Of a stretch of DNA of 64,000 nucleotides, positions 6,309 to 60,365 are shown one piece after another. Source of the DNA: Alphaproteobacteria bacterium (GTDB taxonomy: Bacteria > Pseudomonadota > Alphaproteobacteria > GM7ARS4 > G965262615). The stretch is from assembly GCA_965262615.1 (NCBI GenBank), contig OZ253545.1, positions 96,001 through 160,000 of the forward strand. Reading direction: 5' to 3'. The number at the start of each line of letters is the position of its first letter. Position 1 is the stretch's first letter. The notes below the pieces were generated by a model. That model saw only the letters and a list, made by a program, of their open reading frames with translations, was not told the origin of the DNA and searched no databases. Made by a program: the position numbers and the translations under genes.

Positions 6309-7059
6309 ACAGCTGTTCGGGGCGACAATGTCCGTCAATGTCGGCTTGTGCCAGCACATCATGGATGTTCATGTCACCATCAAAGTCCTTGAGACTATTG
6401 TGCACCATCTTGCGCCTTTGACTGAACAAATGACGCAAAACATCACCCAACAAGGCATCCTCGTCTGATGAGAGAGAAGCGGCGCGCGGTGTCATGGTGA
6501 GCAGGCGAGACTTCACCTGAGGCGGCGGATGAAACGCGGCGCGTCCGATGGAACGCAACAACACAATATGCCACGCCAGCTGTGCCATCACGGAAACTCG
6601 TCCATAGTGTTTATTGCCTTCGCGCGCCACCAAACGCTGAGCGATTTCCTCTTGCACCACAAAAGTCAAACGCGCACACCCATAATGACGAAAGCGCATC
6701 ATGAGCGGCACCGCAATGTGATAGGGCAGATTGCCCACCACCGCCACAGGACGATGGCATGTCACATCATCCAAAGGAATTGTCAGGGCATCCTCAATCA
6801 TGACCGTCAAACGCTCATCTCTCAACGCCATAAGCACACTCTTCATGCGTTTGTCATATTCAATGGCAATCAATTGTCTCAGCGGATGCGCGAGCAGAGC
6901 CTTGGTGAGAGCTCCAGACCCCGCGCCCAGTTCAATCACGGATGGTTCGTTCAAGCCCTCCAGTGCGTGGCGAGCAATCAATTGATTAAGGCGCGGCTCT
7001 AACAAAAAATGCTGCCCGTATGATTTTTTAGCAGCGGGAAATGTCATGCCAGCCCTCAT
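6253..7059 (-). CDS. rsmA: 16S rRNA adenine dimethyltransferase RsmA/KsgA
   Basis: KKSYGQHFL, ELGAGSG, GNLPY; follows pdxA. Confidence 0.94.
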   Translation of the reverse strand: MRAGMTFPAAKKSYGQHFLLEPRLNQLIARHALEGLNEPSVIELGAGSGALTKALLAHPLRQLIAIEYDKRMKSVLMALRDERLTVMIEDALTIPLDDVTCHRPVAVVGNLPYHIAVPLMMRFRHYGCARLTFVVQEEIAQRLVAREGNKHYGRVSVMAQLAWHIVLLRSIGRAAFHPPPQVKSRLLTMTPRAASLSSDEDALLGDVLRHLFSQRRKMVHNSLKDFDGDMNIHDVLAQADIDGHCRPEQLSIETLCRLVRVMAESVPS

Positions 7060-7196
7060 GCCAGCCCTCTACTCTGTGCCAACCGATACCCCATGCCCAT
7101 AGCGGCACACAAACTGGCATCACGAAATGTCATGCCAGCCCTCTGCTCTGTGCCAGCCGATGTCCCATGCCCATGGCGGCACACAAACTGGAATCG
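7038..7196. repeat. Tandem duplication of the pdxA 3' end / rsmA start junction
   Basis: GAAATGTCATGCCAGCCCTC...CCCATGCCCAT(A/G)GCGGCACACAAACTGG occurs at about 7038-7120 and 7124-7196 with a few mismatches; the left copy also has an extra 12-bp duplication. Confidence 0.9.
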
Positions 7197-8131
7197 CTCA
7201 CCATTCCCTCTCGCACCAGTGAAAACGCCGTGCCGTGAGCAGGCGAACAGCGCACGATGGGCAAGCCCAAAGTCACATTGACACCATCATCAAAAGACAA
7301 TGCCTTGAACGGAATCAAAGCCTGATCATGATACATGCAAACAATTCCATCATACTTTTGTAATGAAGACGGACGAAAAAAACTATCGGCAGAAAACACA
7401 CCCTCACAATCAATCCCCGCCTCCTGCACTCGGTGCAATGCTGGCTCAATGATGTCAATCTCTTCACTGCCCAGCAGGCCGTCTTCACCGGCATGAGGAT
7501 TAAGCCCTGTCATGGCAAGGCGCGGTGACTCTATGGCAAAATCATCCCGCAATGACCGATGAACCGTCGCGACACAATTCACAATTGATTCGGTTGTCAG
7601 TGAATCAATGGCATGACGCAATGAGCAATGGGTGGTCACCGTCACCACCCGCAACACATCAGAGGCGAGCATCATCACCTCGCCGCCCGCGCAATTGAGG
7701 GAGCGCGCAAGATAGTCGGTGTGTCCCATCGCTCCCCACTGGGTGCTGTGCAGTGCCTGTTTGTCAATGGGCAGTGTGATCAATGCCGCCGCTTGTTTGC
7801 CACGCACAAAATCCAATGCCATATCAATGCTGCACCGCACCGCCTCTTGTTGCGATGGGTGAGGTTTTCCCATCGCATCCACATGAGGCAGTGGGCGCGG
7901 CAGACAAATCACGGGCAGCCCATCAGGAATGCAAGATGCCGCCTCACGCGGCGAGGCTATGGATATGATGGGAACGGAGATATCATAATAGGCTGCGCGC
8001 TGGCGGTAGAGCTCCTCGTCCCCCACCACGCAAAAAACGGGAAGTGTCTCTCGCCGTTGCCATGCTCGCAGTGTCAGCAACGGAGACACACTGGCGGGGT
8101 CTCCCATGCTCAAAACCAGAGGCAAACTCAC
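7130..8131 (-). CDS. pdxA: 4-hydroxythreonine-4-phosphate dehydrogenase
   Basis: MGDPA, GHTDYL, GLNPHAGE, MYHDQALIP, SPAHGTAF. Confidence 0.95.
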   Translation of the reverse strand: MSLPLVLSMGDPASVSPLLTLRAWQRRETLPVFCVVGDEELYRQRAAYYDISVPIISIASPREAASCIPDGLPVICLPRPLPHVDAMGKPHPSQQEAVRCSIDMALDFVRGKQAAALITLPIDKQALHSTQWGAMGHTDYLARSLNCAGGEVMMLASDVLRVVTVTTHCSLRHAIDSLTTESIVNCVATVHRSLRDDFAIESPRLAMTGLNPHAGEDGLLGSEEIDIIEPALHRVQEAGIDCEGVFSADSFFRPSSLQKYDGIVCMYHDQALIPFKALSFDDGVNVTLGLPIVRCSPAHGTAFSLVREGMVSDSSLCAAMGMGHRLAQSRGLA

Positions 8132-9480
8132 AAGCCCAGCGACTCATCTTTGATGTCAATATAGGCACTGCTCCACAAATCCTGACTGTAACGGTCTGCC
8201 AACTGCTGCAAGCGTTGCTGAAAAAGACCGTTGCGGATGAACTCCCTGCTGGGAAATTCCACATAATTCACGCCTCGCTGACACACCTGAATGAAAAATG
8301 TCCCGTCGTCATCGCGCAGCGCAGGCGTCACCTCACCCGTCATCGTCTGCAGCAAAATCCCCTGCAAGCCTTGAACAATATCCCCCTCATTGAATGAACC
8401 AAAATCCTCCACCATCAAAGGAACAGCTTCTTCGGTAAAAAATGATGTGACCTCAGACGCCTTCTTGTCACAAAATCGGTCGGTCAGGAGCAATTTCTGC
8501 AAGACCGCCACCGCCTCAGCGTATTCATCATCATCCAACATGCGTTCCTGCTCATTCACGACAAATCGCCGTAACGCAATGGTGCGTTTGGTTTCCTCGC
8601 TAAACATCCGCTTATCACGCAAGTAATACAGATGCACCCCATCGGTGGTGACGATGGGTTCAGAGATTTCCCCAATCTTCAATTGGGCAATTTGATAGCG
8701 CGCCTCATGAGGCAATGACTCAATCAATGTCCATCCCAAATGCCCGCCCACCGAGCCAGACGGCAGGTTAGAATGACGAATCACTCCATTGACAAAATTG
8801 CCAAAAATCTGCGGCGTGGAGAGCATCTCTGCCCGTAACCTGCGCATCCGCTGATAGGCCTCATTGTGATCCCTGCCCTCATGAGGCAAAAACAATTCAT
8901 GCAAGGCGTAGTTGTGTTTATCTCGCAAATATTCAAATCGTTCCAGTTCGTCATCCACATCCTGCTCTGAAATGAACACATCCCGTGCCAGTTTATAACG
9001 GACGAGATTGTCCCAATACAAATCGGCACGGATGCGACTGAGCACGGATTCCACCGGCATTCCCTTGTCACTCATAAATTCTCTAAATCCGCCTTCGGCG
9101 ACTCCATTTTGCCTTTCAATATTGCGCAACGCCTCCTCAATGCTGGATTGGGTTGGATGCAATCGCTGCCGCGCTCCCTCTTGTTCCTTGAGGACATCCA
9201 AAATGAGTTGATTCAACACCCGCGCGCGTGCCTGACGGCGTTGCGTGTCGTCATCGGTGCCGCCTTCCGATAGCAGCGTCATGGTGATGGCACTCTCCAG
9301 CTGACGGGCGGTGATGGGCGTTCCATCGACAATCGCGACGATGCTATCGTGCTGCCGCTCTTGGGCGCGCCCAACGGATGTCTGCCACAGACACAGCATC
9401 ACCAATGCGACCAAAATTCGCCTCATGCTGAGAGATAGAGCCTCGCCCATCACAAAACAACCACTAGAATTCATCCCCAC
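8128..9480 (-). CDS. surA: SurA-like periplasmic chaperone / PPIase
   Basis: Signal peptide, IVAIVDG..IT SurA N-domain, GGHLGW and GEISEPI rotamase motifs; lies between lptD and pdxA. Confidence 0.85.
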   Translation of the reverse strand: MGMNSSGCFVMGEALSLSMRRILVALVMLCLWQTSVGRAQERQHDSIVAIVDGTPITARQLESAITMTLLSEGGTDDDTQRRQARARVLNQLILDVLKEQEGARQRLHPTQSSIEEALRNIERQNGVAEGGFREFMSDKGMPVESVLSRIRADLYWDNLVRYKLARDVFISEQDVDDELERFEYLRDKHNYALHELFLPHEGRDHNEAYQRMRRLRAEMLSTPQIFGNFVNGVIRHSNLPSGSVGGHLGWTLIESLPHEARYQIAQLKIGEISEPIVTTDGVHLYYLRDKRMFSEETKRTIALRRFVVNEQERMLDDDEYAEAVAVLQKLLLTDRFCDKKASEVTSFFTEEAVPLMVEDFGSFNEGDIVQGLQGILLQTMTGEVTPALRDDDGTFFIQVCQRGVNYVEFPSREFIRNGLFQQRLQQLADRYSQDLWSSAYIDIKDESLGL

Positions 9481-21144: not shown

Positions 21145-21849
21145 TCAATCAGGCTCATTATCCCACTTCTTTGGAGTCGCCCACATCCCTACTAAAACAA
21201 GAAAATAAAACATTGCTTTAACTAACAAAACAATCTCTTTCACAAAAGGAAGCTTGGTAAGATTATCTTGAAACCTTTGCTTCACTTGCTCTTTCGTGGG
21301 AGATGTTTTCTGCTCTGCATCTCCAATCTCCCCTTCATTGACTATGTCAGTGTAAGGGATTTCTCTTGGTGGGTGAGCCAATGTAGACAAGCGAAAATTG
21401 TCTTTAAAATAAGGTTCAGAAAACAAACCTTTCATAGCTTGCCTACGAGCCAAATCTTGCTCCTGCAAAGCTTCCGTCAGCTTCACAATTTCTGGAGAAT
21501 GGAATGCCATAGCGTCACGAAGTTTTGCAAGTCTAGCCTCTTCTGCTTTGTGCTTCTCCGCAATTTCTAGGATAGAGGAGGGTGTCATAGCATTATGAAG
21601 TTTTGCAAGTCTAGCCGCTTGTGCTGCTTCCTTCCCCATAATTTCTAGGGAAAAAGGAAGTGTCACAGCGTCATGAAGTTTTGCAAGTCTAGCCGCTTGT
21701 GCTGCTTCCTTCCCCATAATTTCTAGGGAAAAAGGAAGTGTCATAGCGTCATGAAGTTTTGCAAATTCAGCCTCTTGTGCCGTGCATCCAAGCGGATTTT
21801 TCGGTTCTATTTTCGACAATTCCATCATGTTCCAGCCAGAATAAAACAA
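21145..21849 (-). CDS. Hypothetical protein with 26-aa tandem repeats and a C-terminal TM helix
   Basis: 234-aa ORF; about 3.5 copies of AKLHDAMTLPFSLEIMGKEAAQAARL; hydrophobic IVLLVKAMFYFLVLVGMW near the C-terminus. Confidence 0.7.
   Translation of the reverse strand: MFYSGWNMMELSKIEPKNPLGCTAQEAEFAKLHDAMTLPFSLEIMGKEAAQAARLAKLHDAVTLPFSLEIMGKEAAQAARLAKLHNAMTPSSILEIAEKHKAEEARLAKLRDAMAFHSPEIVKLTEALQEQDLARRQAMKGLFSEPYFKDNFRLSTLAHPPREIPYTDIVNEGEIGDAEQKTSPTKEQVKQRFQDNLTKLPFVKEIVLLVKAMFYFLVLVGMWATPKKWDNEPD
21508..21780. repeat. 78-bp tandem repeat, about 3.5 copies
   Basis: Units start at 21511, 21589, 21667 and 21745; the middle two are almost identical. Confidence 0.93.
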
Positions 21850-21872: not shown

Positions 21873-21921
21873 TATGATTATCGCCGTTTCTTCTTCATTT
21901 TTTGCGCGGCATGGCGGCGTT
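21873..21921. repeat. Imperfect copy of the secA 3' end (partner at about 22747-22798)
   Basis: TATGATTATCGCCGTTTCTTCTTCATTTTTTGCGCGGCATGGCGGCGTT versus TATGACTATCGCCGTTTCTTCATTTTTTTGCGCGGCATGGCAAGACGGCGTT. Confidence 0.88.
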
Positions 21922-22228
21922 ACCGGTCGATGGCTGAGCCCACAATCGCACCAATAATCGTGGTGATGACATAGCCCGGCAAGGTCAGAAGAATTAAAAG
22001 CTCTGTGGATGGCACAATGCCCCACCAAATATAGGCAACGCAAAAAGACGCAAGAACAGCCAAATAAAACCCTCCCGTCCAACGAAGGGCTCTTGTGAGC
22101 TCCCAAAAACGCAGCTCCCCCAGCCGCAAATCAGACTTTTCCTCATCTTCAATACTCTCATCAGGAGGCGGCTTTTGCAGTCGGCTCGTGGATGAAGAGG
22201 TTTGCTTATTTTTTTGGTTAGCCTTCAT
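21920..22228 (-). CDS. Hypothetical two-TM protein, candidate toxin partner of the Panacea antitoxin
   Basis: 102 aa from MKANQK; start overlaps the Panacea stop; charged N-terminus followed by two hydrophobic helices. Confidence 0.65.
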   Translation of the reverse strand: MKANQKNKQTSSSTSRLQKPPPDESIEDEEKSDLRLGELRFWELTRALRWTGGFYLAVLASFCVAYIWWGIVPSTELLILLTLPGYVITTIIGAIVGSAIDR

Positions 22229-22682
22229 GACAAAATTCTTTTCTAATCTCATCATGGTCAATAACAGTGCCAGCCCCTTTCTTAAAGGCTTGAAACCATG
22301 CCCCCTCATGCTCATGAGTTAATGCCACCAGCTGATAAGCATCATACTTGCTGTATGTGGCAATCGTTTTTCTGATGGAATCATCATTCCGCAAAACAGG
22401 ATACGCCCGCCCACTCTTCATTTTATGCTCAATGACACTGGAACGGCGCGAGCCCACATCCTTGTAATGATGATACACATCAGGAATAACGGGACCATGC
22501 TTCCAAGCCTCAAATTCCAGATAGGGCAAAAAAACACCGCCATCGCGCAAATAAACCACATAATTGAGATACAGCATTTTTTGCAACTCCAAATGAGTCA
22601 GCTGCCGCCCGCGCTCGCCCGCCTCAACAAGCAACGCATTCACCCGTGCCACCAAATGCCGCCTGCGATACTCATCTGCCAT
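22218..22682 (-). CDS. Panacea-domain (DUF4065 / SocA-like) antitoxin
   Basis: LTHLELQKMLY, FEAWKHGPVIPDVY and LVALTH....W motifs; GGGAG RBS and an extended -10 (TGATATAAT) upstream. Confidence 0.88.
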   Translation of the reverse strand: MADEYRRRHLVARVNALLVEAGERGRQLTHLELQKMLYLNYVVYLRDGGVFLPYLEFEAWKHGPVIPDVYHHYKDVGSRRSSVIEHKMKSGRAYPVLRNDDSIRKTIATYSKYDAYQLVALTHEHEGAWFQAFKKGAGTVIDHDEIRKEFCHEG

Positions 22683-22751
22683 GATGTCTCTCCCTTTGCA
22701 TCATCTATTGCCTAGATATAGTGGCATTATATCACATTTCATCATGTATGA

Positions 22752-25358
22752 CTATCGCCGTTTCTTCATTTTTTTGCGCGGCATGGCAAGACGGCGTTTG
22801 GTGTCTTTCTTGCGAGGTGCGGATGTTTGTGTGCCGTGTGAAACCCGCCGCGCCGCCATTGGTGACGCTGGCATGGAAGCATCCCGCCCCTCAATCGCCA
22901 AATGACACAACGCCGCCGTCACATGATTTTTCAAACTCTCCAACATACCGCCAAACAACGAAAACGCCTCGCCGCGATACTCATTGAGAGGGTCACGCTG
23001 GGCATACGCCCGCAACGATATGCCCTGACGCACATGATCCAATGTCTGCAAATGCTCCTTCCACACGCGATCTAAAAAATACAGCAACAACCGCTTTTGC
23101 GCGAGGCGAATGGCATCCTCGCCGTAGAGCTGTTTTTTACGCAGCATCACATCATCGCCAATGGCAAGCAATCGCTCACACACAATGGCATCATCCATCG
23201 GCACTTCCTTAATCCAATCCGCAAGGGGCACCGATGCCGCGAGCAAACGCAAACAGGTGGCATGCAATGCCGTGATGTCCCACTGCTCTGGCAAGGACTC
23301 GGGCGGTGCGGTCGCCGCCACCGCATCGCGAATGGCATCCTCCCGCATACCCTCGGTGATGTCGGCGACATCATCGCTGTCCAAAATATCCCGCCTTTGT
23401 TCATAAATGACGCTGCGCTGTTCGTTCATCACATCATCAAAGCGCAAAAGATTTTTGCGTATGTCAAAATTATGAGCCTCCACCCGAGCTTGCGCCTTGG
23501 CAATCGCCTTATTGACCCACGGATGAGTGATGGCATGCTCATCGGGAACGCCAAACCGCTCCATCATGGAATCAATGCGCTCGGCGCCAAAAATACGCAT
23601 CAAATCATCCTCCAAAGACAAAAAGAACATGGAACTGCCGGCATCCCCCTGCCGCCCCGAGCGTCCCCGTAGCTGATTGTCAATGCGGCGGGATTCATGA
23701 CGCTCCGTTCCCACCACACACAAGCCGCCCGCATTTTGAGCCTTCTGCTTGAGCCGCTCCACTTCCTTTTCAATCTCGGCTTGGCGAGCGGCGCGCTTTT
23801 TCTCGTCATTGATAGCACCACACTCTTGCTGCACCCGCATATCCACATTGCCGCCCAATTGAATGTCCGTGCCGCGCCCCGCCATGTTGGTGGCAATGGT
23901 GACCGCACTGGGCATACCCGCACCGGCAATAATCTGTGCCTCCTTTTCGTGATAGCGAGCATTGAGAACATCATGAGCAATCCCCTCCTTTTTCAACAAG
24001 GACGACAACTCCTCAGACTTTTCAATGCTCACCGTTCCCACCAACACCGGCTGATGTCGCTCATGACACTCCTTAATCAATGACACAATGGCTTTCAATT
24101 TGTCGGTGCGTCGGCGGTAGATCTCATCATCATGATCCACCCGCACCATTTCTCTATGAGTGGGAATGGCAACCACCCGCACCCCATAGATGGAAGCAAA
24201 CTCCTCTTGTTCCGTCATGGCTGTGCCGGTCATGCCTCCCAGCTTGGCGTAGAGACGAAAATAATTCTGAAAGGAAATGGATGCCAGCGTCTGATTTTCC
24301 TGCTGCAAAGGCACCTGCTCTTTTGCCTCCAACGCCTGATGCAATCCGCCCGAAAAGCGTCTGCCCTCCATCATGCGCCCCGTGAATTCATCCACCAGCA
24401 TCACCTGATTTTGATGCACCATGTAATCCACATCCCTTTGAAACAAAAAATGCGCCCGCAGCGATTGATTCACATGATGCACCAAATTGACATGCGCCAT
24501 GTCATAGAGCGAGCCCTCCTGCATCAGTTTCTCACGGCGCAACGCCGCCTCCACCTTCTCCACACCCCCCTCGGTCAGAGACACCGAACGGCTTTTTTCA
24601 TCCTTCTCACAATCCTCCGCCGTCAAGGTGGAGACGAGTCCATTGATTCGCACATAGAGCTCCGATGATTCATCCGCCGCACCCGAAATCACAAGGGGCG
24701 TGCGAGATTCATCAATGAGGATGGAATCCACCTCATCCACAATGGCGTAATGCAAAGGACGCTGCACCACATCATTCTTCTCAATCACCATGTGATCGCG
24801 CAAATAGTCAAAACCGAACTCGTTGTTTGTGCCGTATGTGACATGAGCCTCATACGCCGCTCGTCTCTCTTGTGATGGCACACTGGGAATGACGCATCCC
24901 ACCGTCAGTCCCAAGGCGTTGTAAATCTGTCCCATCCACGCGGCATCTCGCTGGGCGAGATAGTCATTGACGGTCACCACATGAACGCCCTTATTGGTCA
25001 AGGCATTCAAATAAACCGCAAGGGTGGATGCCAATGTTTTGCCCTCTCCGGTTTTCATCTCGGCAATCATGCCGCGATGCAAGGCAATGCCGCCCATCAA
25101 TTGCACATCAAAATGACGCTGCCCCAAAACACGCCGTGCCATCTCGCGCACCGCCGCAAAGGCAGGCACGAGCAATTCGTCCAGCGCGCGTCCATTGTGC
25201 AGTTCTTCTTGCCATGCTCGCGTTTGCTGCACAAATTCGTCATCGCCCCGCTGACCCCACGCCCCTTCGGCATCATTGATCGCCGCCACCAATGGCTGAA
25301 AGGTCTTCACCAAACGCTCATTGGATGAGCCAAAAATCTTCTCCAACAATGATAGCAA
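22752..25358 (-). CDS. secA: Preprotein translocase subunit SecA
   Basis: EMKTGEGKT, DEVDSILIDE, ATNMAGRGTDI, RRIDNQLRGRSGRQGD. No C-terminal SEC-C zinc motif. Confidence 0.98.
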   Translation of the reverse strand: MLSLLEKIFGSSNERLVKTFQPLVAAINDAEGAWGQRGDDEFVQQTRAWQEELHNGRALDELLVPAFAAVREMARRVLGQRHFDVQLMGGIALHRGMIAEMKTGEGKTLASTLAVYLNALTNKGVHVVTVNDYLAQRDAAWMGQIYNALGLTVGCVIPSVPSQERRAAYEAHVTYGTNNEFGFDYLRDHMVIEKNDVVQRPLHYAIVDEVDSILIDESRTPLVISGAADESSELYVRINGLVSTLTAEDCEKDEKSRSVSLTEGGVEKVEAALRREKLMQEGSLYDMAHVNLVHHVNQSLRAHFLFQRDVDYMVHQNQVMLVDEFTGRMMEGRRFSGGLHQALEAKEQVPLQQENQTLASISFQNYFRLYAKLGGMTGTAMTEQEEFASIYGVRVVAIPTHREMVRVDHDDEIYRRRTDKLKAIVSLIKECHERHQPVLVGTVSIEKSEELSSLLKKEGIAHDVLNARYHEKEAQIIAGAGMPSAVTIATNMAGRGTDIQLGGNVDMRVQQECGAINDEKKRAARQAEIEKEVERLKQKAQNAGGLCVVGTERHESRRIDNQLRGRSGRQGDAGSSMFFLSLEDDLMRIFGAERIDSMMERFGVPDEHAITHPWVNKAIAKAQARVEAHNFDIRKNLLRFDDVMNEQRSVIYEQRRDILDSDDVADITEGMREDAIRDAVAATAPPESLPEQWDITALHATCLRLLAASVPLADWIKEVPMDDAIVCERLLAIGDDVMLRKKQLYGEDAIRLAQKRLLLYFLDRVWKEHLQTLDHVRQGISLRAYAQRDPLNEYRGEAFSLFGGMLESLKNHVTAALCHLAIEGRDASMPASPMAARRVSHGTQTSAPRKKDTKRRLAMPRKKMKKRR

Positions 25359-25414: not shown

Positions 25415-26957
25415 ATGAAAAACAGCGTTATCATCATTGACTTTGGCTCGCAAGTCACTCAGCTGATTGCGCGGCGTGTGCGCGAGGCGGGTGTCTATGG
25501 CATCATTGTGCCGCCGCCTTGTTCCATGGAGGACATCACCCGCCATCACCCCAAAGCCATCATTCTGTCGGGAGGCCCCGCATCAGTCGCCAACAATGAT
25601 GTATCTCTGCCATCTCAGCTGTTTGAGTCTGACATTCCCATTTTGGGCATTTGTTATGGCATGCAGCTGATGGTGACCATGCTGGGCGGCACGGTCACGC
25701 CCGCCCGCCACCGAGAATATGGCGCAGCACCATTGACCGTCACCGACAGCTGCCTGCTCACCCAAGATATCTGGCACAAACATGACACCCCCACCGTCTG
25801 GATGAGTCATGGGGATTCCGTCACCACACTGCCGCACGGGTTTCGTGATATTGCCCACAGTGGCAACCATCATCATAGTCGCCATCGCCAATGACGAGAA
25901 AAAACGCTACGGCTTGCAGTTTCATCCAGAGGTCACCCACACGGAGCATGGCACACAATTGCTGCATCGCTTTATTTTTGCCATTGCTCAATGCGAGAAA
26001 AATTGGTCAATGAATGACTATCAAGACCAAGCAATTTGTGATATTCGCGATTTTGTGGGCAATCAAAAAGTTCTGGTGGCGTTATCGGGCGGGGTGGATT
26101 CCGCCGTCATGAGTCTTCTCATTCACAAGGCAATCGGCAAACAGATGATTCCCATCGCCATTGACACCGGATTGTTGCGTCATGACGATGTGACCCACAT
26201 TGAGAACTTTGCAACGCGTCATTTGGGTGTTCCCGTCACCATTCATGATGCCAGTTCTCAATTCATCCGAGCTTTACGCGGCGCGACCGATGGCGAGCAA
26301 AAAAGAAAAATCATTGGCACATGCTTCATTGATGCCTTTGAGCGTGTCACCCGCAAGGCGATGCCGCCCTTTTTGGCTCAAGGGACGCTTTATCCCGATG
26401 TGATTGAATCTCATTCGGTGCACGGTGCGCCCTCGGCAACCATCAAATCCCATCACAATGTGGGCGGGTTGCCTGACCATATGAAGTTTCAATTGATTGA
26501 ACCGTTGCGCGCCCTCTTCAAAGACGAGGTGCGCGCCCTTGGGGCAACATTGGGCATGGAGAAGCGTTTTTTGGAGCGGCATCCGTTTCCCGGCCCTGGT
26601 CTTGCCATTCGCATTGCGGGCGAGGTCACGCCTGATCGCCTCGCCGTGGTGCGTCACGCCGACCGCATTTATCGTGACCAATTGGACAAGGCTGAGCTCA
26701 CCGACAAAATCTGGCAAGCACTGGCAATCTTGTTGCCCGTCACCAGTGTGGGTGTCATGGGCGATGGACGCACCGAAGGCATGACCATCGTTCTCAGAGC
26801 CGTCACATCCCAAGACGGCATGACCGCCGACAGCTTCCCATTTTCCCATGAATTCCTCACCCAATGTGCCACCGCAATCATCAACAATGTTGCCAATGTG
26901 ACGCGCGTTCTCTATGATGTCACCTCCAAACCCCCCGCGACAATTGAATGGGAATAG
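25415..26957 (+). CDS. guaA: GMP synthase (glutamine-hydrolysing), with a frameshift near 25875
   Basis: First frame: DFGSQVTQLIARR, GICYGMQ, WMSHGD. Second frame: [38 protein letters not shown]. Confidence 0.93.
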
Positions 26958-26965
26958 TGAAAATC

Positions 26966-27799
26966 ATGCAAAACAAACTCAAAAAATGGACGCGCAAAGG
27001 TTATCTGCGCCCGCTCCATCTCATCTACCGATTGGCGCGCAGATATATCATATACTATGAAGAATTCTCTTTTACCCTTGACAAAAACGGGGAACGCTTG
27101 ATTCTGAAAAAATTGAGCCCCTTTCAGATGCAGACCTTCTTTGATGTGGGAGCTCATACTGGCGAATGGTCACTCATTGTGAGAGAATATTTTCCATCCG
27201 CCACCATTCACGCCTTTGAAATTTCAAAAGCTACTTTTGGGCGATTGAAGAAGAATGCCCATCAAAAAAATATCATCCTCAACAACTACGGGCTGGCACA
27301 CAAAAATGACACGGTGCAATACAGAGATTATGAAAAATATCCCGGTAGCAATACGGTGCTGGATGCCCCTCTTAGTCATCCTCTATTTGGCAAGGCGGAT
27401 GTCAAAAAAACAAAAATTAAAACGGGTCACCAGTATTGCCGAGACCACCACATTGACCACATTGATTTTATCAAAATTGATGTGGAAGGAGCGGAATATC
27501 TCGTTCTGCAAGGGTTGATTCCTCTGCTGAAGGAACAAAAGATTACGGTCATTCAGTTTGAATACGGCTACACCAGTGGTGACTTGCATTTTTTGATGAA
27601 AGATTTTTATGATTTTTTCGCGAGCTATGGCTATAGTGTGGGTCCCCTCAAATTCACAGGCGTTCTTTTTGGTGAATTTAACGAGTACTTGAATAGTTTC
27701 AGGTCGGGACCTAATTTTGTGGCAGTGCTTTCTCACAGACAAGACATCATGGATGCCATTCGCGGCACCCCAATTAGGAGTTATCCTAGTGGCTTGTAG
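26966..27799 (+). CDS. FkbM family methyltransferase
   Basis: FDVGAHTG, HAFE, IDFIKIDVEGAE, IQFEY; AT-rich. Confidence 0.9.
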   Translation: MQNKLKKWTRKGYLRPLHLIYRLARRYIIYYEEFSFTLDKNGERLILKKLSPFQMQTFFDVGAHTGEWSLIVREYFPSATIHAFEISKATFGRLKKNAHQKNIILNNYGLAHKNDTVQYRDYEKYPGSNTVLDAPLSHPLFGKADVKKTKIKTGHQYCRDHHIDHIDFIKIDVEGAEYLVLQGLIPLLKEQKITVIQFEYGYTSGDLHFLMKDFYDFFASYGYSVGPLKFTGVLFGEFNEYLNSFRSGPNFVAVLSHRQDIMDAIRGTPIRSYPSGL

Positions 27800-27812
27800 C
27801 ATAGAAAAAATG

Positions 27813-28008
27813 CCGAAGGCATGACCATCGTTCTCAGAGCCGTCACCTCCCAAGACGGCATGACCGCCGACAGCTTTCCATTCCCTCATGAATTCCTCGC
27901 CCAATGCGCCACCGCAATCATCAACAATGTTGCCAATGTGACGCGCGTTCTCTACGATGTCACCTCCAAACCCCCCGCGACAATTGAATGGGAATAGTGA
28001 AAATCATG
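27813..28008 (+). repeat. 196-bp direct repeat of the guaA 3' end (partner 26773-26968)
   Basis: Near-identical (about 8 mismatches by eye), offset 1040 bp; both copies end at GAATAGTGAAAATCATG. Confidence 0.97.
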
Positions 28009-29733: not shown

Positions 29734-29790
29734 AATTGATTTCCAACAAAAAATTTGCTACAATAAGGGCAACCTCAAGGAGTGAGAATC

Positions 29791-35333: not shown

Positions 35334-35334
35334 G

Positions 35335-41209: not shown

Positions 41210-41259
41210 AAGACCTTATACCTCTTTCGTCACAAAACTGCAAATACTTAAAAACGGTG

Positions 41260-41336
41260 ATTGTTCCTTTTATCACAACACCCTTCATGATATAACGATT
41301 ATTGTTCCTTTTATCACGACACCCTTCATGATATAA
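41260..41336 (+). repeat. 41-bp-period tandem duplication in the carA/yqeY divergent promoter region
   Basis: ATTGTTCCTTTTATCAC(A/G)ACACCCTTCATGATATAA at 41260 and 41301. Confidence 0.9.
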
Positions 41337-45833: not shown

Positions 45834-46058
45834 ATGCGTGATGTGAATAAAAGAAGGGATGCTTTTCGGCGTATTGTGCCTAAACGCGTGGATAGTGTCC
45901 TCAATAGTCTGCGTATTTTGGGTAATTGCGGCAACAGAGGCAATTATGACTACGATGAGGCGGACATCAAAAAAATATTTGCCGAGATTGATAAGGCGGT
46001 GAAAGCCGCCAAAAGTCAGTTTTCGGCACAAGACACCAGCAAAGGGTTTGAATTGTGA
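45834..46058 (+). CDS. Small helical hypothetical protein coupled to the GHKL ATPase
   Basis: GGAG RBS; 74 aa (KRRDAFRR...LRILGNCGNRGNYDY....KKIF); its stop overlaps the next start (GTGA). Confidence 0.82.
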   Translation: MRDVNKRRDAFRRIVPKRVDSVLNSLRILGNCGNRGNYDYDEADIKKIFAEIDKAVKAAKSQFSAQDTSKGFEL

Positions 46059-54447: not shown

Positions 54448-54459
54448 ACTGTGGGATGA

Positions 54460-56175
54460 CTATGTGATACGCCATACCGCTGTCGCTTGCCTAGCAAGCC
54501 ACTGTTGATGTTGATTGAGGCTTTCAATATCCCAAGTATCAGCTTCAGCTATTTTATTGTTAATGGCTAAACCAACCTTTTTTAATACCTTTCGCTTTTC
54601 CTCAAAAGGCTCTTGACCCAATTGGGTGCTTTTGGGAAGCAACGCGATGTTGCCGAGACGCTCTCTCGCTTCGTAGTAGGTATCCAAACCAAAACTTTCC
54701 TGCCAGTGATTTTCAGGTGAGTACGGCAATACATGCTCCACAGTCAAGTCGTCGGTGGAGGGGGGGGATGGAGCTTTATTGCAATGCCTTTCTATTTCGC
54801 TCAGAATATGTAGAATTTTCTTATTGTGTTTTTTAAGCATGCTTTTTCGAGAAAAAGCATGCTTAAATTCCTCGTCATTCGGATATATAGATAATAGTCT
54901 TTCTTTTGTGCTGGTGATTATTTGTTTATCACCAGCATTATTAGGTTTTTTTTCTTCTGTGATTTTATTAACCAGCTCATTATATCTCCTTTCTTGTTCT
55001 TTGGAGTCTTTTCCGCAAATCACATTATAGCGAATGGATACGACAACTATCCATTGCAGAACTTTGGCAAAATCTTCTGCAGAAAAATTTGCGTAGACTG
55101 CCATCAATAGACTTAAGGGTGCTTTTATATTGAAGAGCCTTAAAGTCCGCAGGCTATCAACAATCTTGTAGCTAACCTCTTTCCAAAAATCATCATCTGG
55201 ATTTTGTAAAGCGGCGTAAATAGGCGCGTACTTTTTTATCCCTTGTAAATAGGGAGGCACTTGATTAGGAGATGTAATTTTATCTCTCAATTCGCGATAG
55301 AGCGATTTTTTAGCTATCAAAGTGTCAAACATACCGTGATAACTACGCAAGAATGAAGTAAAATTAGTAACCTCAAGTTGGTCAAGCACATGAAACCAGT
55401 CCTCGCTCAAATCCTCAAGATATTCTTGACTTAGACCATCCTTTTCATCTACTAATGAAAAAAGATAATTTTTGAGCAAATCAGGTGCAGATAAATGCAT
55501 GCCCCGTGCATTAAGCGTTTCAAAAATGACAAAGGCATCCGAAGCGTTCGGGACCGTTATGGTGGTGAATAGAAATCCCTGACGAACATTATCAAGAAAA
55601 TTAATCAACTCATCATCACTGTACTCTTTCATCTTTTCTTGAAAAAATTTAAGAGCCTTGCTTAATTTTCTATTACTTGCACGAATTTTTCGTACTTCAG
55701 GCACTTCATAGATATTCATTGTAGCCATTTCCTTCAAATGATCCTTGTTATTTCTATTGAGGATTAATTTGAGCGAAGTTTTGAGGTTTGTCGGATTAAA
55801 AACACCAAGATAGGTGTTATGATAATATTTAACCCTTTCTTCGTTGTCTTCCACAGAGATGTTATCATTGATGAGTTGCTGAAATCGGTGCAAGGCAGCG
55901 ATGATCATCAAGGTAATGGTGGTCAGGCGTTGTTGTCCGTCTATAACCGTAAAGGCTTCTCTATCCTTGGTCTGCAAAACCAAATATCCCATAAAGTGTT
56001 GAGTTCCCCCTTGACTCATATTTTCGTAGTCCTCCCACAATTCATCAATCTGTTCTTGTTCCCATGAGTAGTCCCTTTGAAACGAAGGAACTTTATAGCT
56101 TTTGCTATTACTCATGATGTCAGAAAAGGTTTTGTTTTCTGGCTCAAGGTATATTTTTGTAAATTGCTTGCTCAT
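54460..56175 (-). CDS. DUF262 + DUF1524 protein (GmrSD-like type IV restriction family)
   Basis: VPSFQRDYSW, IDGQQRLTT, FETLNARG; C-terminal VEHVLP and RLGNIALL; AAGGAG RBS before ATG 56175; AT-rich. Confidence 0.9.
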   Translation of the reverse strand: MSKQFTKIYLEPENKTFSDIMSNSKSYKVPSFQRDYSWEQEQIDELWEDYENMSQGGTQHFMGYLVLQTKDREAFTVIDGQQRLTTITLMIIAALHRFQQLINDNISVEDNEERVKYYHNTYLGVFNPTNLKTSLKLILNRNNKDHLKEMATMNIYEVPEVRKIRASNRKLSKALKFFQEKMKEYSDDELINFLDNVRQGFLFTTITVPNASDAFVIFETLNARGMHLSAPDLLKNYLFSLVDEKDGLSQEYLEDLSEDWFHVLDQLEVTNFTSFLRSYHGMFDTLIAKKSLYRELRDKITSPNQVPPYLQGIKKYAPIYAALQNPDDDFWKEVSYKIVDSLRTLRLFNIKAPLSLLMAVYANFSAEDFAKVLQWIVVVSIRYNVICGKDSKEQERRYNELVNKITEEKKPNNAGDKQIITSTKERLLSIYPNDEEFKHAFSRKSMLKKHNKKILHILSEIERHCNKAPSPPSTDDLTVEHVLPYSPENHWQESFGLDTYYEARERLGNIALLPKSTQLGQEPFEEKRKVLKKVGLAINNKIAEADTWDIESLNQHQQWLARQATAVWRIT

Positions 56176-56395
56176 TGTTGTTACTCCTTGACTCATGGCA
56201 TCACAAAGACGACTCCATATTACTTTTACACATTGTTTTCAATTGAAATCAACACCAACGATTTTGAAAATTTCCACCGCAAAAGTTTATGGTGCGAGCG
56301 ATCACCCTTTCATATTTTTTTATCATATTCAGGTTTTATTAAGACAAAAATTCTATAACAAAGGCATCAGTCAACCACAACGATGGAGAAAGATC

Positions 56396-56470
56396 ATGTG
56401 GAACACGCCCAAAGTGACCGAAGTGTCTGTCGGACTTGAAATCAACAGCTATGCCTGTGCCGAAGTCTAA
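56396..56470 (+). CDS. pqqA: PQQ precursor peptide PqqA, copy 1
   Basis: MWNTPKVTEVSVGLEINSYACAEV: W..P...E..VG.E-x3-Y motif; GGAG RBS. Confidence 0.92.
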   Translation: MWNTPKVTEVSVGLEINSYACAEV

Positions 56471-56488
56471 GTGACGACACACACATTC

Positions 56489-56529
56489 TTAAGAAAAGCG
56501 GATGCCTCATTGGTGTCCGCTTTTCTTAA
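56489..56529. terminator. Intrinsic terminator hairpin after pqqA copy 1
   Basis: TTAAGAAAAGCGGATGCC-TCATT-GGTGTCCGCTTTTCTTAA inverted repeat. Confidence 0.8.
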
Positions 56530-56649
56530 TTCAGAGTCAGCCCGCCCGTGACGGCTTGACGCACAAAATTTTTCTTTCATATTCAGGTTTTATTAAGACA
56601 AAAATTCTATAACAAAAGCATCAGTCAACCACAGCAACGGAGAAAGACC

Positions 56650-56724
56650 ATGTGGAACACACCCAAAGTGACCGAAGTGTCTGTCGGACTTGAAATCAAC
56701 AGCTATGCCTGTGCAGAAGTCTAA
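56650..56724 (+). CDS. pqqA: PQQ precursor peptide PqqA, copy 2 (identical peptide)
   Basis: Same 24-aa peptide; two synonymous changes (ACG/ACA, GCC/GCA). Confidence 0.92.
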   Translation: MWNTPKVTEVSVGLEINSYACAEV

Positions 56725-56746
56725 GTGATGACACACACATTCTTGT

Positions 56747-56779
56747 GAAAAGCGGATGCCCCATGGGTGTCCGCTTTTC
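56747..56779. terminator. Bidirectional terminator between pqqA copy 2 and anmK
   Basis: GAAAAGCGGATGCCC...GGGTGTCCGCTTTTC inverted repeat. Confidence 0.8.
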
Positions 56780-56783
56780 TGAT

Positions 56784-57908
56784 TCAGGGTTGCCACACCA
56801 GCCCGCCCGTGACGGCTTGACGCACCCCCGTTGTGCTGGGAAGGGTGAGTGGCAAGCCCCGCATCGCCCGCACCGCGAGCCACGCAAAAGCCTGTGCCTC
56901 CACCCCATCGCCCTGCCAGCCGCGCGCATCACAATCAATGAGCTGTCCATCCCACTTCTCCTGCAACAAAGACATCAACTGCTTTTGATGGCGTCCGCCG
57001 CCACACACCACCACATCGCAATGCACGCCCATCACCTTTGCCAATTGATGCAGAGCCACCATCACCCCCACTGCCGTGCAATGAATCCAAGTGGCACAGC
57101 CATCCGCCAGTGACAAGGAAGCGAATGCCTCTTGCATCACCTCGTGAAAATCCTGACGATGCAACGCACGCGGCTTGTGCCAAAATTCCCCTGCAAAAAA
57201 AGAATGTCCCCCATAGCGCGCCACCGTTTCTTCATGAGGCTGTCCGTGCACCGCCAGCTCATCGCGCTGCACCCAATCATGCAATCCGTGATTGAGACAA
57301 AAATCATTGAGCAACGCCATGCCCACGCCCACATCACTGGCGCGCACATCATCGGGGGCAATGAGTGCCGTCACATTGGCAATGCCGCCAATGTTCATGA
57401 TGGCAAGGGGCGGATGCCATCCATCGGCACGCGCCAACGCCTGATGAAACAACGGCACAAGCGGCGCGCCCTGCCCGCCATGTGCCAGATCGCCATCACG
57501 AAAACGATTCACCACCCGCGTTTTCATCTGCACCGCCATCTGTTGTCCATCACCCAACTGCCAGCACCACCGTGCCTGTGGCGCATGACGCAAGGTCTGA
57601 CCATGAAATCCAATCACATCACAATGAGACACCCCATGACGATTCATAAAGTCAGCAAGAATGTCACAGTGATGCTGAGTCAAACGCCGTTCTATGTCAT
57701 TGAAAAAATCATTATGCACGGGGGCATCATAGTCATGACTGCGCGCCACCGCCTGATGCAGCTGCTCGCGCCACGAGGCATCATAAGCATGAGTCTCACA
57801 CGCACCGCGATCAATGACATTGTCCCCATCGGTGTCAATGACGGCAACATCCACGCCATCCATGGATGTGCCACTCATCAACCCAATGGCGGTGAAGCGG
57901 TCAGTCAT
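56784..57908 (-). CDS. anmK: Anhydro-N-acetylmuramic acid kinase
   Basis: GLMSGTSMDGVD, GFHGQT, GGQGAPLVP, NIGGIAN, CGGG, EAQAFAWLA. Confidence 0.95.
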   Translation of the reverse strand: MTDRFTAIGLMSGTSMDGVDVAVIDTDGDNVIDRGACETHAYDASWREQLHQAVARSHDYDAPVHNDFFNDIERRLTQHHCDILADFMNRHGVSHCDVIGFHGQTLRHAPQARWCWQLGDGQQMAVQMKTRVVNRFRDGDLAHGGQGAPLVPLFHQALARADGWHPPLAIMNIGGIANVTALIAPDDVRASDVGVGMALLNDFCLNHGLHDWVQRDELAVHGQPHEETVARYGGHSFFAGEFWHKPRALHRQDFHEVMQEAFASLSLADGCATWIHCTAVGVMVALHQLAKVMGVHCDVVVCGGGRHQKQLMSLLQEKWDGQLIDCDARGWQGDGVEAQAFAWLAVRAMRGLPLTLPSTTGVRQAVTGGLVWQP

Positions 57909-58614: not shown

Positions 58615-58617
58615 ATG

Positions 58618-59709
58618 TCATGAGGATTTTTTGCGCCCATAAAAATCGGAGCTGTGCCAGAATTGCTGTGCCATGCGCCCAAAGACCACCAGCACGGCAG
58701 CCACAGGAGCGGCAATAATTGCGCCCACCAAGCCCGCCTGTGCGCCGCCAAAAAACACCATGAACAAAAACAACAACGGATGCACACCGCTCGCCAATCC
58801 CACATAGCGCGGCGTCAGATAAAAACTCTCCACCATATTGCCCGCAACACACAGTGGCAGAAGCCACATGACAATATTCATCTCAAAAGACACCGCCAGT
58901 GATGCCACCAAAACTCCTGCCACAAAACCCAAATAAGGAATCAAAATCAGCACCCCATTGAGAAATGCCAAAGCCAAAGCAAACGGCACGCCCAGTAAGG
59001 AAAAAATCAGGCTGTAATAAAGGCTCATGATTAAGATCACCGTTCCATATCCTCGCACGGTGGTGGCAAGGGCATCATCCAGCATGGTGGCGGCATGACC
59101 AAGGGACTGCTGCAGGCGTGGCGGAATCATCTTATGTACCCATGCCACGATTGCCTCCCGATCCTGCAGCATCATAAAAGCAATAATGGGCGTGATCAAA
59201 ATGAAGCCAAACAAATTGAGCACCGCCATGCCGCCCGTGAGCAGTGATTGAAAGAGAAAAGACCCGCCATCCCATAGCGAGTTCCACGGAATGGCTTTGA
59301 GCCACACCAGACCCTGTTGAGCCGAAAAAAGATTGTCATGAATCACGCCTTGCTGCTTGCCATAGATGACCCACCGAGCAATAATCTGCCGCACCTGCTC
59401 CAATTGGTCAGGGACACTGGCGATGAATTGGGCAAGTTCTGCCAGCACGAGTGGCAACCATCCCAGCATCAGCACATAGGTGACAATAAAAAACACCGTC
59501 ACCGCCATCAATGCCGCCGCCACCGCCGACATGGAGCGGCACAGCCGCAAAAATAACGGTGTCATTACATACGCCACAAACGCCCCCAGCACAAAGGGCA
59601 TCACGACCGCACGGGTGATGTACATCACCACCATCACACACACCGAAGCGATGCCGATGAACAACAGAGATTCTTTTTGCACCTGCGAGGAAATTGGTTT
59701 GCTGGTCAT
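58618..59709 (-). CDS. AI-2E family (PerM) transporter
   Basis: PF....AYVM.P, LIPYLG, ESFYLTPRYVG, GVHPL, G.IIAAP. Confidence 0.88.
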   Translation of the reverse strand: MTSKPISSQVQKESLLFIGIASVCVMVVMYITRAVVMPFVLGAFVAYVMTPLFLRLCRSMSAVAAALMAVTVFFIVTYVLMLGWLPLVLAELAQFIASVPDQLEQVRQIIARWVIYGKQQGVIHDNLFSAQQGLVWLKAIPWNSLWDGGSFLFQSLLTGGMAVLNLFGFILITPIIAFMMLQDREAIVAWVHKMIPPRLQQSLGHAATMLDDALATTVRGYGTVILIMSLYYSLIFSLLGVPFALALAFLNGVLILIPYLGFVAGVLVASLAVSFEMNIVMWLLPLCVAGNMVESFYLTPRYVGLASGVHPLLFLFMVFFGGAQAGLVGAIIAAPVAAVLVVFGRMAQQFWHSSDFYGRKKSS

Positions 59710-59751
59710 GATGAATGCCCTTAATCAGATGAACAACAGAGATTCTTTTTT

Positions 59752-59826
59752 TGGTGGGCGCGATAGGGATTGAACCTATGACCTCTCCCGTGTGAGGGGA
59801 GCGCTCTCCCGCTGAGCTACGCGCCC
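59752..59826 (-). tRNA. tRNA-Val (CAC)
   Basis: Reverse complement GGGCGCGTAGCTCAGCGGGAGAGCGCTCCCCTCACACGGGAGAGGTCATAGGTTCAATCCCTATCGCGCCCACCA. Confidence 0.95.
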
Positions 59827-59838
59827 AAAAAACGCGTT

Positions 59839-59962
59839 TATATCACATCACTTCAAAACATTCCATTGTCATTAAAACATGCCATTGTCATTTTGACTAG
59901 CGGTGGAAATCGACTGAATGACATCCCAGTGTTCCAAAATGATGCGTTTGAAAGTCACCTTT
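59839..59962 (-). pseudogene. Deleted remnant copy of the SnoaL-like gene 3' part
   Basis: Encodes KVTFKRI joined to ILEHWDVIQSISTASQNDNGMF*, matching two separate segments of 59982-60365, plus the downstream TATATCACATCA. Confidence 0.8.
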
Positions 59963-59981
59963 TAGTCTATATCACATCATC

Positions 59982-60365
59982 CTAAAACATTCCGTTGTCA
60001 TTTTGACTGGCAATGGGCATAGACTGGATGACATCCCAATGCTCCACAATTTTTCCTGCCTCATCAAGGCGAAAAATATCCATGCACGCATAATTTTCAC
60101 CGCCGCCCCATTCTTGATGGCAATGCAGCACCACATAATTGCCATCGGCAAAGACGCGTTTGAAAGTCACCTTTTTATGAGGATACGCCGCCGCCATGCG
60201 TTCGAAATAATCAACAAATCCCTGTTTTCCTGTGGCAACATGAGGATTGTGTTGAATGTAATCATCGCCGCCATAGCGTTGCATGGCGGCTTGAGGCTTG
60301 GCTTGATTAAACATCACATCATAAAATGCGACCACATTTTTTTTGTTTCTGTCCTGCGGTGTCAT
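59982..60365 (-). CDS. SnoaL-like / NTF2 family protein
   Basis: YIQHNPHV..GK.GF, DGNYVVLH, DIFRLD..GKIVEHWDV. Confidence 0.88.
   Translation of the reverse strand: MTPQDRNKKNVVAFYDVMFNQAKPQAAMQRYGGDDYIQHNPHVATGKQGFVDYFERMAAAYPHKKVTFKRVFADGNYVVLHCHQEWGGGENYACMDIFRLDEAGKIVEHWDVIQSMPIASQNDNGMF

Follow-up and report, generated by a model that had tools for sequence, protein, structure and literature searches.

The displacement of a gene 3′-end by an incoming one is not a new idea; it has been proposed for rhs genes and for type VI secretion (T6SS) loci. In the passages of Jackson et al. 2009 (PMC2935791) that concern rhs genes, homologous recombination is proposed for a circle on which part of the upstream gene is linked to a new end. 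For the T6SS effector-immunity modules of Vibrio cholerae, the part of Kirchberger et al. 2017 (PMC5361080) considered here attributes sequential displacement to homology-facilitated illegitimate recombination, a process described, in the cited portion of another report (PMC2884548), in three competent species. Replacement ends are also known from the prophage e14, an element of ~15 kb that, in the sections of the account used here, encodes site-specific recombination functions of its own and is excised when the SOS response is induced (PMC13626634). Here we consider five genes, pdxA, secA, guaA, anmK and a SnoaL-like gene, whose 3′-ends occur more than once in a 64-kb stretch of contig OZ253545.1 (positions 96,001 to 160,000; this whole stretch is referred to as the window). 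Our tentative interpretation, to which we give slightly less than an even chance, is that all five arose when one-sided homologous recombination with diverged relatives displaced the gene 3′-ends, leaving the repeats as scars.

Comparison of the window with itself by BLAST produced ten non-trivial matches; five of them were the gene-end loci, with E-values from 2.5e-8 to 6.7e-98. Of the remaining ones, three lay within one 78-nt array inside an open reading frame (ORF), one was a 36-nt palindrome, and the last was a perfect 23-nt repeat next to tRNA-Val. The five 3′-end duplications listed in the first-pass annotation, which had been made from the letters alone, are all present where it placed them and are non-random; its gene names (PdxA, SecA, GMP synthase, FkbM, Panacea/SocA, AnmK, PqqA and SnoaL) agreed with Pfam as well. 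We considered nine local direct-repeat families (the self-BLAST families and two further tandem repeats from Tandem Repeats Finder, TRF). Five of the nine extended over the stop codon of a gene encoding 100 aa or more, with a mean of 1.24 expected from random placement (P=0.0025; 20 000 placements); one covered a start codon. Enrichment at stop codons, for which the annotation had proposed a genome-wide check, was thus observed within the window; however, in a genome that is 93% coding it is the outcome expected from selection alone. A scan with the 3′-ends of 57 features (E<1e-3) found no more remnants, the sole other match being the 23-nt repeat beside tRNA-Val.

The layout is common to all five loci: an intact gene with its stop codon is followed by 8, 836, 855, 219 or 18 nt (at pdxA, secA, guaA, anmK and SnoaL, in this order), then by a copy of the last 40-195 nt of the gene, and then by the native downstream gene. 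At pdxA, SnoaL and anmK the segment between the copies (8, 18 and 219 nt) recurs after the second copy; since this segment is homologous to the sequence past the second copy, the three loci resemble tandem duplications. At secA and guaA homology ends 5 and 11 nt past the stop codon, respectively, and low-GC cargo follows. The events recur: there are three copies of the SnoaL end and an extra 12-nt copy at pdxA.

The pdxA locus consists of the following elements.

7130..7195, minus strand: working pdxA 3′-end, last 21 codons with the stop codon at 7130-7132 (Pfam PdxA; repeat search)
7056..7121, minus strand: displaced pdxA 3′-end, frame and stop codon intact, 91% identical to 7130-7195
7044..7055, minus strand: extra perfect 12-nt copy of the displaced pdxA end, with the stop/start overlap (TRF 7044-7069, period 12, 2.2 copies, 100%)

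The two longer copies are 91% identical over 66 nt (E 3.5e-19) and form a tandem with a period of 74 nt and 8 nt between them; these 8 nt (7122-7129) resemble the first 8 nt of ksgA. The displaced stop codon overlaps an ATG upstream of ksgA, and the true ksgA start is likely the ATG at 7047-7045, inside the 12-nt copy. Six differences separate the copies (four synonymous and two non-synonymous codons). We compared the working ends with those of relatives (P0243 for PdxA, the 94% identical P0121 for SnoaL, P0001 for GuaA) at the protein level only; the genes for P0243 and P0121 share one contig of 159,461 nt. PdxA of the window and its 98% identical relative P0243 have five real differences, four of them at residues 310, 314, 320 and 324; inside the repeat 3 of 21 residues of the working end differ, versus 2 of 311 outside (Fisher p=0.002). 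Both residues that distinguish the displaced copy, A and Y, are those of P0243, and residue 320 is M in both window copies and I in both relatives. Judged by these residues, the working pdxA end is a divergent patch and looks like the newcomer of the two.

At guaA the copies are longer and enclose a gene.

26773..26968, plus strand: working guaA 3′-end, last 61 codons with the stop codon at 26955-26957, then 8 nt and the start ATG of the gene that follows (Pfam GMP_synt_C; alignment)
26966..27799, plus strand: FkbM-family methyltransferase cargo gene, alternative start at 26948 (Pfam Methyltransf_21 E 6.7e-19; TIGR01444 E 7.4e-23, above cutoff)
27813..28008, plus strand: displaced guaA 3′-end, frame and stop codon intact, ending at the ATG of the ORF 28006-28338 (96% over 196 nt)

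The guaA copies are 96% identical over 196 nt (E 4.8e-87; 94% in an ungapped alignment of 205 nt), with perfect blocks of 53 and 47 nt, and homology stops exactly at the ATG of the next gene, which after the displaced copy is an ORF (28006-28338) with a signal-peptide-like N-terminus. A promoter-like site predicted in the working end (26890-26918) is kept in the remnant (27930-27958). The G+C content is 0.424 in the cargo (26969-27812) versus 0.537 in guaA. The eight differences between the copies amount to five synonymous and two non-synonymous codons; at the latter the displaced copy has P, found in seven of seven other GuaA proteins, and A, found in four of seven, and the S and T of the working copy occur in none of the seven. 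When the guaA-FkbM stretch was compared with plasmids, only guaA genes matched, on 11 replicons and at 70-71%; the remnant copy was covered in all ten records listed, the working copy also in one. The plasmid comparison gives a weak hint that the remnant carries the more canonical sequence of the two.

Upstream of the repeat, guaA is split over two frames in its glutamine amidotransferase domain (25809-25894, the break lying at about 25870-25880). Compared with its intact 513-aa relative P0001, the guaA gene of the window appears to have one extra base just after the CATCATCAT run; the frameshift is an error of sequencing or else marks a gene that was broken recently.

The third locus at which the second copy has kept its frame is that of the SnoaL-like gene, upstream of tRNA-Val.

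59965..60175, minus strand: working SnoaL-like 3′ part, stop codon at 59982-59984, with 17 nt downstream (Pfam SnoaL_2/SnoaL)
59873..59963, minus strand: displaced SnoaL fragment in two parts, 19 nt (59945-59963) and the final 22 codons including the stop codon (59873-59940) (alignment)
59838..59873, minus strand: third, 19-nt copy of the last SnoaL codons (59855-59873), then a second copy of the 17-nt segment before tRNA-Val, which lies at 59752-59826 on the minus strand (TRF 59855-59892, period 19, 94%)

The last codons align over 68 nt at 82% (59983-60050 versus 59873-59940; E 3.9e-12). A perfect 19-nt match farther upstream (59945-59963 and 60157-60175), of which none is expected by chance, shows that the remnant once spanned ~194 nt of the gene and lost ~102 nt internally; it is therefore bigger than first described. 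The copies differ at 12 positions in 69 nt, corresponding to eight synonymous changes (with the stop codon included) and four non-synonymous codons, and the last codons occur in three alleles that encode the same residues and end in three different stop codons. The 18 nt between the copies include the 17 nt that precede tRNA-Val. Among the remnant-specific residues, L and T are found in P0121 and I in others; S was not seen among the ten sequences compared. Six of the seven differences between the working protein and P0121 fall in its last 64 residues (p=0.065).

On the other side of tRNA-Val lies the perfect 23-nt direct repeat (59656-59678 and 59728-59750), one copy directly 3′ of the tRNA gene and the other within the first codons of a gene for an AI-2E-family transporter. 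The pair encloses 49 nt with the present start codon of the transporter gene; it may be a 5′-end counterpart of the displaced 3′-ends.

We then pooled the three frame-intact remnants. Their 27 differences from the working ends fall at codon positions 1, 2 and 3 in the numbers 7, 1 and 19; 17 codons differ synonymously and 8 non-synonymously, each stop codon is kept, and there is no frameshift. At the residue level 2 of 61 (guaA), 2 of 21 (pdxA) and 4 of 22 (SnoaL) differ, and seven of the eight residues specific to the remnants are found in functional relatives. Transitions account for 20 of 26 mismatches between copies. The probability of at most one difference in 27 falling at the second codon position is 0.0003 if all changes were neutral, 0.024 for duplication in place with a freely decaying remnant (a model that puts half of the changes on the free remnant) and 0.61 with constraint acting on both copies until recent times, the proportions in the latter two models being assumed. 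By this substitution pattern, the second copies are alleles rather than decayed duplicates.

The same data bear on another origin. A small tandem duplication could have arisen in place, by slippage or unequal exchange, and the working gene could later have received another allele; the cargo at secA and guaA would then represent separate insertions. We regard this as unlikely, though with more than a token chance. Three of the loci are indeed arranged head to tail, and by TRF their periods are 74, 254 and about 110-129 nt; recent perfect tandem repeats exist elsewhere in the window (51 nt ×2 at 47165-47267) and at pdxA itself (12 nt ×2.2 at 7044-7069); M at pdxA residue 320 in both copies fits a common origin or conversion between copies; and the synonymous pattern would likewise be expected if the allele had been exchanged later. 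However, two steps are needed instead of one, and the imported tract has to coincide with the duplicated segment (at pdxA the differences span residues 310-324, and the repeat begins at 313). The arrangement of copy, cargo and copy at secA and guaA requires further events still, and for a freely decaying remnant the fit to the codon-position counts is poor (P=0.024 and 0.066).

Displacement by one-sided recombination is the preferred reading and the simplest single process; what follows on the direction in which DNA was transferred, on the one-sided (homology-facilitated illegitimate) route and on the part played by selection is our inference. A donor fragment would begin inside a conserved gene, pass its stop codon and extend into the downstream DNA of the donor. 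One side would be exchanged by homology within the gene; the far end would be joined to the recipient out of register, by an illegitimate or short-homology event, 40-195 nt before the recipient's stop codon. The gene would stay whole with a donor-type end, and the old end of the recipient would be shunted downstream, where it would be silent and would later shrink by deletion. A short stretch of the recipient would in this way be swapped for a longer donor stretch, at a donor-recipient divergence of 6-18%, and no dedicated recombinase or cassette signal would take part. A linear fragment would suffice because the homologous exchange is upstream of the joint.

What the product looks like would depend on the donor. 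If donor and recipient were alike downstream of the gene, the result would have a tandem look, as with the 74-nt period at pdxA/ksgA, the SnoaL copies with the tRNA-Val promoter and anmK with an extra pqqA; where the donor carried different genes at that place, these would appear as cargo, as with the PanA-toxin pair after secA and FkbM after guaA. Because a genome that is 93% coding would retain only events in which the gene stays intact, the survivors would sit at gene ends. Joins past the stop codon would leave no repeat, long repeats would be unstable, and gene-breaking events or expressed 5′ fragments would be removed. The remnants may also have been kept because they carry start signals of the next gene, namely the overlap of the pdxA stop codon with the ksgA start region, the promoter-like site in guaA and the SnoaL copies before tRNA-Val.

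The remaining two loci show remnants that have decayed. The first is secA.

22747..22787, minus strand: working secA 3′-end, stop codon at 22752-22754, with 5 nt downstream (Pfam SecA domains; repeat search)
21916..22746, minus strand: secA cargo, consisting of a promoter-like site, a PanA/SocA-type antitoxin gene and an overlapping 102-aa ORF (Pfam; G+C content)
21873..21915, minus strand: decayed, displaced copy of the secA 3′-end (43 aligned nt at 91% identity, E 2.5e-8)

When set against the working copy, the displaced secA end has three indels, of about -5, -1 and +3 nt (strings read by eye), and the longest perfect stretch in the repeat is ~18 nt. In the cargo, the antitoxin gene (22218-22682) matches Pfam SocA_Panacea (E 3.5e-14) and NCBIfam SocA_antitoxin (E 2.9e-23, below the cutoff of that model), and the 102-aa ORF (21920-22228) has a membrane-helix-like tail and matched no family in profile scans. 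A promoter-like TAGTCA-17-TATAAT with TG is predicted at 22754-22726. The G+C content of the cargo is 0.477 versus 0.539 in secA. Comparison of the secA cassette with plasmids gave no match, and PADLOC assigned neither the secA nor the guaA cargo to a defence system. Next to the displaced secA end, a 234-aa ORF without a family contains the 78-nt array (3.8 units with 85% matches at 21487-21780); the whole segment 20208-21872 has a low G+C content (0.408) and holds three ORFs without a family.

The second is the anmK locus, in which two units follow one another.

56568..56825, no single strand: unit 2, consisting of a promoter region, pqqA copy 2 (56650-56724, plus strand), a hairpin and the working anmK 3′-end (minus strand, stop codon at 56784-56786) (Pfam AnmK, PqqA)
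56314..56564, no single strand: unit 1, consisting of pqqA copy 1 (56396-56470, plus strand), a hairpin and the displaced anmK 3′-end (alignment)

The units repeat with a period of 254 nt and are 90% identical over 259 aligned nt (E 6.7e-98). The displaced anmK end (56538-56564) is a perfect 27-nt copy of 56799-56825 (E 4.3e-11); its last codons were lost to a 7-nt gap. The segment between the anmK copies comprises the hairpin, a complete pqqA gene and its upstream region, and since it holds the whole of pqqA, this gene was duplicated as well; two of 75 nt differ between the pqqA copies, both synonymously (read from the alignment). Both pqqA genes encode 24-aa peptides and are flanked by a defence nuclease gene on one side and by the convergent anmK on the other; there is no pqqBCDE in the window.

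Cargo between two copies of a gene end is also what an integrative element would leave. Elements bringing a replacement 3′-end into secA and guaA, and perhaps into the other genes, with an integrase now lost or encoded elsewhere, could have left attachment-site (attL/attR)-like repeats around stripped cargo, as in cis-mobilizable elements (CIMEs). At secA (43 nt) and guaA (196-205 nt) direct repeats of this kind hold the target 3′-end and enclose an insert; guaA is a known integration site. The G+C content of the cargo, 0.477 and 0.424, stands against 0.54 in the flanking genes, and a toxin-antitoxin pair and a methyltransferase are types of cargo frequent on mobile elements. In e14, as told in the cited part of the report (PMC13626634), icd similarly runs into the prophage and a fragment, icdC, remains at the far end with synonymous or conservative differences; CIMEs, by the definition in the portion of the review cited (PMC5704250), are elements that keep attL/attR after loss of the integration genes. 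Nevertheless, we consider such an origin rather improbable here. There is no integrase in the window and, at 93% coding, no room for one; as no core is common to the loci, up to five different integrases would be required. At three loci the 8, 18 and 219 nt between the copies are homologous to the native downstream sequence, so that no element remains, and the low-GC single-gene islands of the window, some of them adjacent to tRNA or tmRNA genes and thus at classic integrase targets, have no flanking repeats.

These statements rest on the following scans. A Pfam family was found for 49 of the 56 ORFs scanned, and none of the 56 belonged to a recombinase, transposase or reverse-transcriptase family; the seven ORFs without a Pfam family (96-832 aa) gave no recombinase match where re-scanned. 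The coding density of 93% leaves no room for an integrase in the window. In none of the ten locus pairs did we find a common motif beyond what shuffled sequences gave (in the pair with the lowest value, 3 of 60 shuffles reached the observed score). The absence of an integrase, transposase or common att core, as noted in the first-pass annotation, is therefore borne out within the window. Integron gene cassettes, a common att core and a diversity-generating retroelement were rejected. Integron gene cassettes are disfavored by the lack of an integrase in the window and of a motif common to the cargo boundaries, and a site-specific element with one recombinase by the lack of an integrase in the window and of a core common to the loci. 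As to a diversity-generating retroelement, no reverse transcriptase was found, and the mismatches are not concentrated at adenines of the would-be template, A occupying the downstream copy at 0 of 6 mismatches in pdxA, 0 of 8 in guaA and 1 of 12 in SnoaL.

Three other single-gene islands, with G+C contents of 0.37-0.41, carry no mobility genes: an AIPR/AbiU-like gene (29782-31566) that begins 5 nt past the gene for transfer-messenger RNA (tmRNA), an 832-aa ORF without a family (46055-48553) 320 nt past tRNA-Met, and a gene for a GmrSD/HEC-06-type nuclease (54460-56196) between metH and pqqA. No flanking repeats were detected at these islands, the best matches being 8-19 nt long with E-values of at least 0.05. 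Within the 832-aa ORF there is a perfect tandem duplication of 51 nt (17 codons, 47165-47267), in-frame and, by its look, very recent; the GmrSD-type gene contains the near-perfect 36-nt palindrome (94%, 54832-54867). In addition, a 41-nt unit occurs twice (93%) at 41253-41336, in the divergent intergenic region between carA and a YqeY-like gene.

The proposal of the first-pass annotation was that of integrase-free capture and exchange of cassettes. In its strong form, circles consisting of a gene end and cargo are produced by recombination between the repeats, pass from cell to cell and are inserted by a single homologous crossover, the gene ends serving as reusable cassette slots. A single crossover of such a circle does yield the order of end, cargo and end exactly, and it has been proposed for rhs tips in the passages cited above (PMC2935791); at guaA the perfect blocks of 53 and 47 nt could support RecA-dependent loop-out of FkbM. 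We find this quite improbable as an account of the five loci, since circles of 74-130 nt cannot explain pdxA and SnoaL, the secA repeats, with indels and a longest perfect stretch of ~18 nt, are poor substrates, foreign cargo is present at two loci of five, and the signature was seen in no other feature of the 57 and in none of the three other islands. Excision by homologous recombination, as the annotation supposed, is disfavored by the same lengths: perfect stretches of ~18 nt (secA), 16 nt (pdxA) and 14 nt (SnoaL) are too short, and the repeats too diverged, for efficient RecA-dependent excision, and guaA with its 53 nt is the only exception. Its view of many gene ends as variable slots finds no support either, no other remnant having turned up among the 57 scanned features and the three other islands being without flanking repeats. 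The notion of small cargo modules between gene ends agrees with the low-GC cargo of secA and guaA but not with the three loci that lack foreign cargo. What we would keep of the proposal is that gene ends travel with their downstream DNA, as the substitution pattern suggests, and that there is no integrase in the window; a system, or an excisable cassette, is not upheld. The data favor a by-product of general recombination, with selection acting as a filter, over a dedicated system, and a new class of mobile element is not established by these repeats.

We also considered an assembly artefact, in which diverged contig ends of two co-occurring strains were joined end to end. The copies do differ as alleles of two strains would, mostly by synonymous transitions, and the one-base frameshift of guaA relative to P0001 implies an error in the sequence or else a broken gene. 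The remnants, however, have decayed by deletion: SnoaL shows the ~102-nt internal loss and in addition a third 19-nt copy, secA has three indels, and anmK has the 7-nt gap. Decayed remnants and extra copies argue against a plain mis-join, in which both copies should be intact. Moreover, working pdxA is itself a mosaic with respect to P0243, the sequence contains no Ns, and no long common word at which an assembler could jump register was seen at the joints (read by eye). We consider an artefact highly improbable.

Several observations weigh against displacement by one-sided recombination. The counts are low: when the in-place model, in its more realistic form, is tested by codon position, P is 0.024 and 0.066, and for the SnoaL patch p is 0.065. 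Working guaA shows no visible patch when compared with its ~98.6% identical relative P0001, with 0 of 61 residues differing in the repeat and 5 of 292 outside; either the P0001 lineage shares the guaA event or guaA fails this part of the argument. No convincing microhomology was recognized by eye at the joints of pdxA, secA, guaA and SnoaL, and the comparison, being at the protein level only, mapped no recombination tract or joint at the nucleotide level. According to the cited part of Kirchberger et al. 2017 (PMC5361080), homology-facilitated illegitimate recombination is less frequent than the ordinary kind by orders of magnitude, so that five scars in 64 kb need a high rate or long retention. 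Finally, integrase-borne replacement ends, for example those of e14 with icd and icdC, yield an equal, mostly synonymous signature, as far as the section of the report used here goes (PMC13626634).

The window (93% coding, 50.6% G+C, without N) is alphaproteobacterial, with a permuted tmRNA of the alpha type at 29454-29777 and with the gene order surA-pdxA-ksgA, lptD, lptFG and pepA-holC-ndk (Pfam). A SecA query was compared with species-representative genomes, and the best 80 of 598 matching stretches were taken in; among these the nearest SecA had 62% identity, and in 3 of the 80 loci a second gene was in common with the window, none of them informative. Identity to PdxA relatives was 98% and 89% and then dropped to 51%. 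By these identities, the lineage is isolated within the collections reached.

If gene ends were displaced as we propose, a displaced end would be a readable natural scar of one-sided recombination, a process otherwise known mainly from laboratory crosses and toxin loci. Five scars in 64 kb would then mean a noticeable share of small-scale gene gain in the lineage, and a toxin-antitoxin pair, a methyltransferase and a second pqqA would have been gained without mobile-element genes. Since the same codons are present as two alleles in each scar, a scar would record the divergence of donor and recipient (6-18% here); scar divergence could therefore gauge the reach of recombination in uncultured populations. 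For annotation, short 'pseudogene' fragments behind intact genes need not be borders of prophages or islands.

One could go further and imagine a lineage with unusually active, integrase-independent displacement of 3′-ends, linear or circle-mediated, acting genome-wide on housekeeping genes and serving as a main route for small accessory genes (toxin-antitoxin pairs, methyltransferases, an extra pqqA). We think this improbable; were it true, displaced ends would record who recombined with whom.

How do the five loci compare with the systems named at the outset? In the rhs model, as far as the passages cited go, the working end gives way to an incoming part of the conserved gene that bears a new end, the old end comes to lie downstream as a silent piece, and no integrase is invoked; a displaced end of this type downstream of an intact gene is present at all five loci. 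Repeated events at rhs genes lead to strings of dissociated ends, with which the serial copies at pdxA and SnoaL, and in particular the three copies of the SnoaL end, may be compared. However, rhs tips are, in the same passages, non-homologous toxin domains accompanied by immunity genes, their diversity being what the system is about, whereas here the ends are alleles of one housekeeping sequence and the protein is essentially unchanged; the circular intermediates of the rhs model are, besides, unable to explain the 74-130-nt cases.

The likeness to the T6SS modules, as these are presented in the part of the source considered, lies in a homologous anchor upstream, an illegitimate join downstream, the retention of the old effector 3′-end, arrays that grow, and the fact that no integrase was found. 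The difference is that the T6SS case concerns a specialised toxin locus selected to keep its immunity genes, whereas the events described here affect five unrelated housekeeping or ordinary genes, three of them without a new gene. Homology-facilitated illegitimate recombination was reportedly obtained in the laboratory by de Vries and Wackernagel in 2002, by Prudhomme et al. in 2002 and by Meier and Wackernagel in 2003, all cited in PMC2884548; an E. coli conjugation study (PMC3240628) also bears on it. With that laboratory route our loci would share the use of homology at one end and illegitimate joining at the other, resulting in foreign DNA added beside a conserved gene; no convincing microhomology was seen by eye at the joints read here.

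Among integrase-borne elements, e14 is alike in that, in the cited sections, the working gene runs into the insert and a C-terminal fragment with synonymous or conservative differences stands at the far side, but the inserts here are 0.8 kb or nil and the window has no recombinase. CIMEs, in the cited portion of the review (PMC5704250), derive from decayed integrative and conjugative or integrative and mobilizable elements (ICEs/IMEs) and use a cognate integrase on conserved att sites, while here there is no integrase or core in the window and three loci are without cargo. What sets the five loci apart from the cases compared here is their setting: the genes are ordinary housekeeping genes, the old and new ends are allelic, and at three of the five loci no new gene was brought in.

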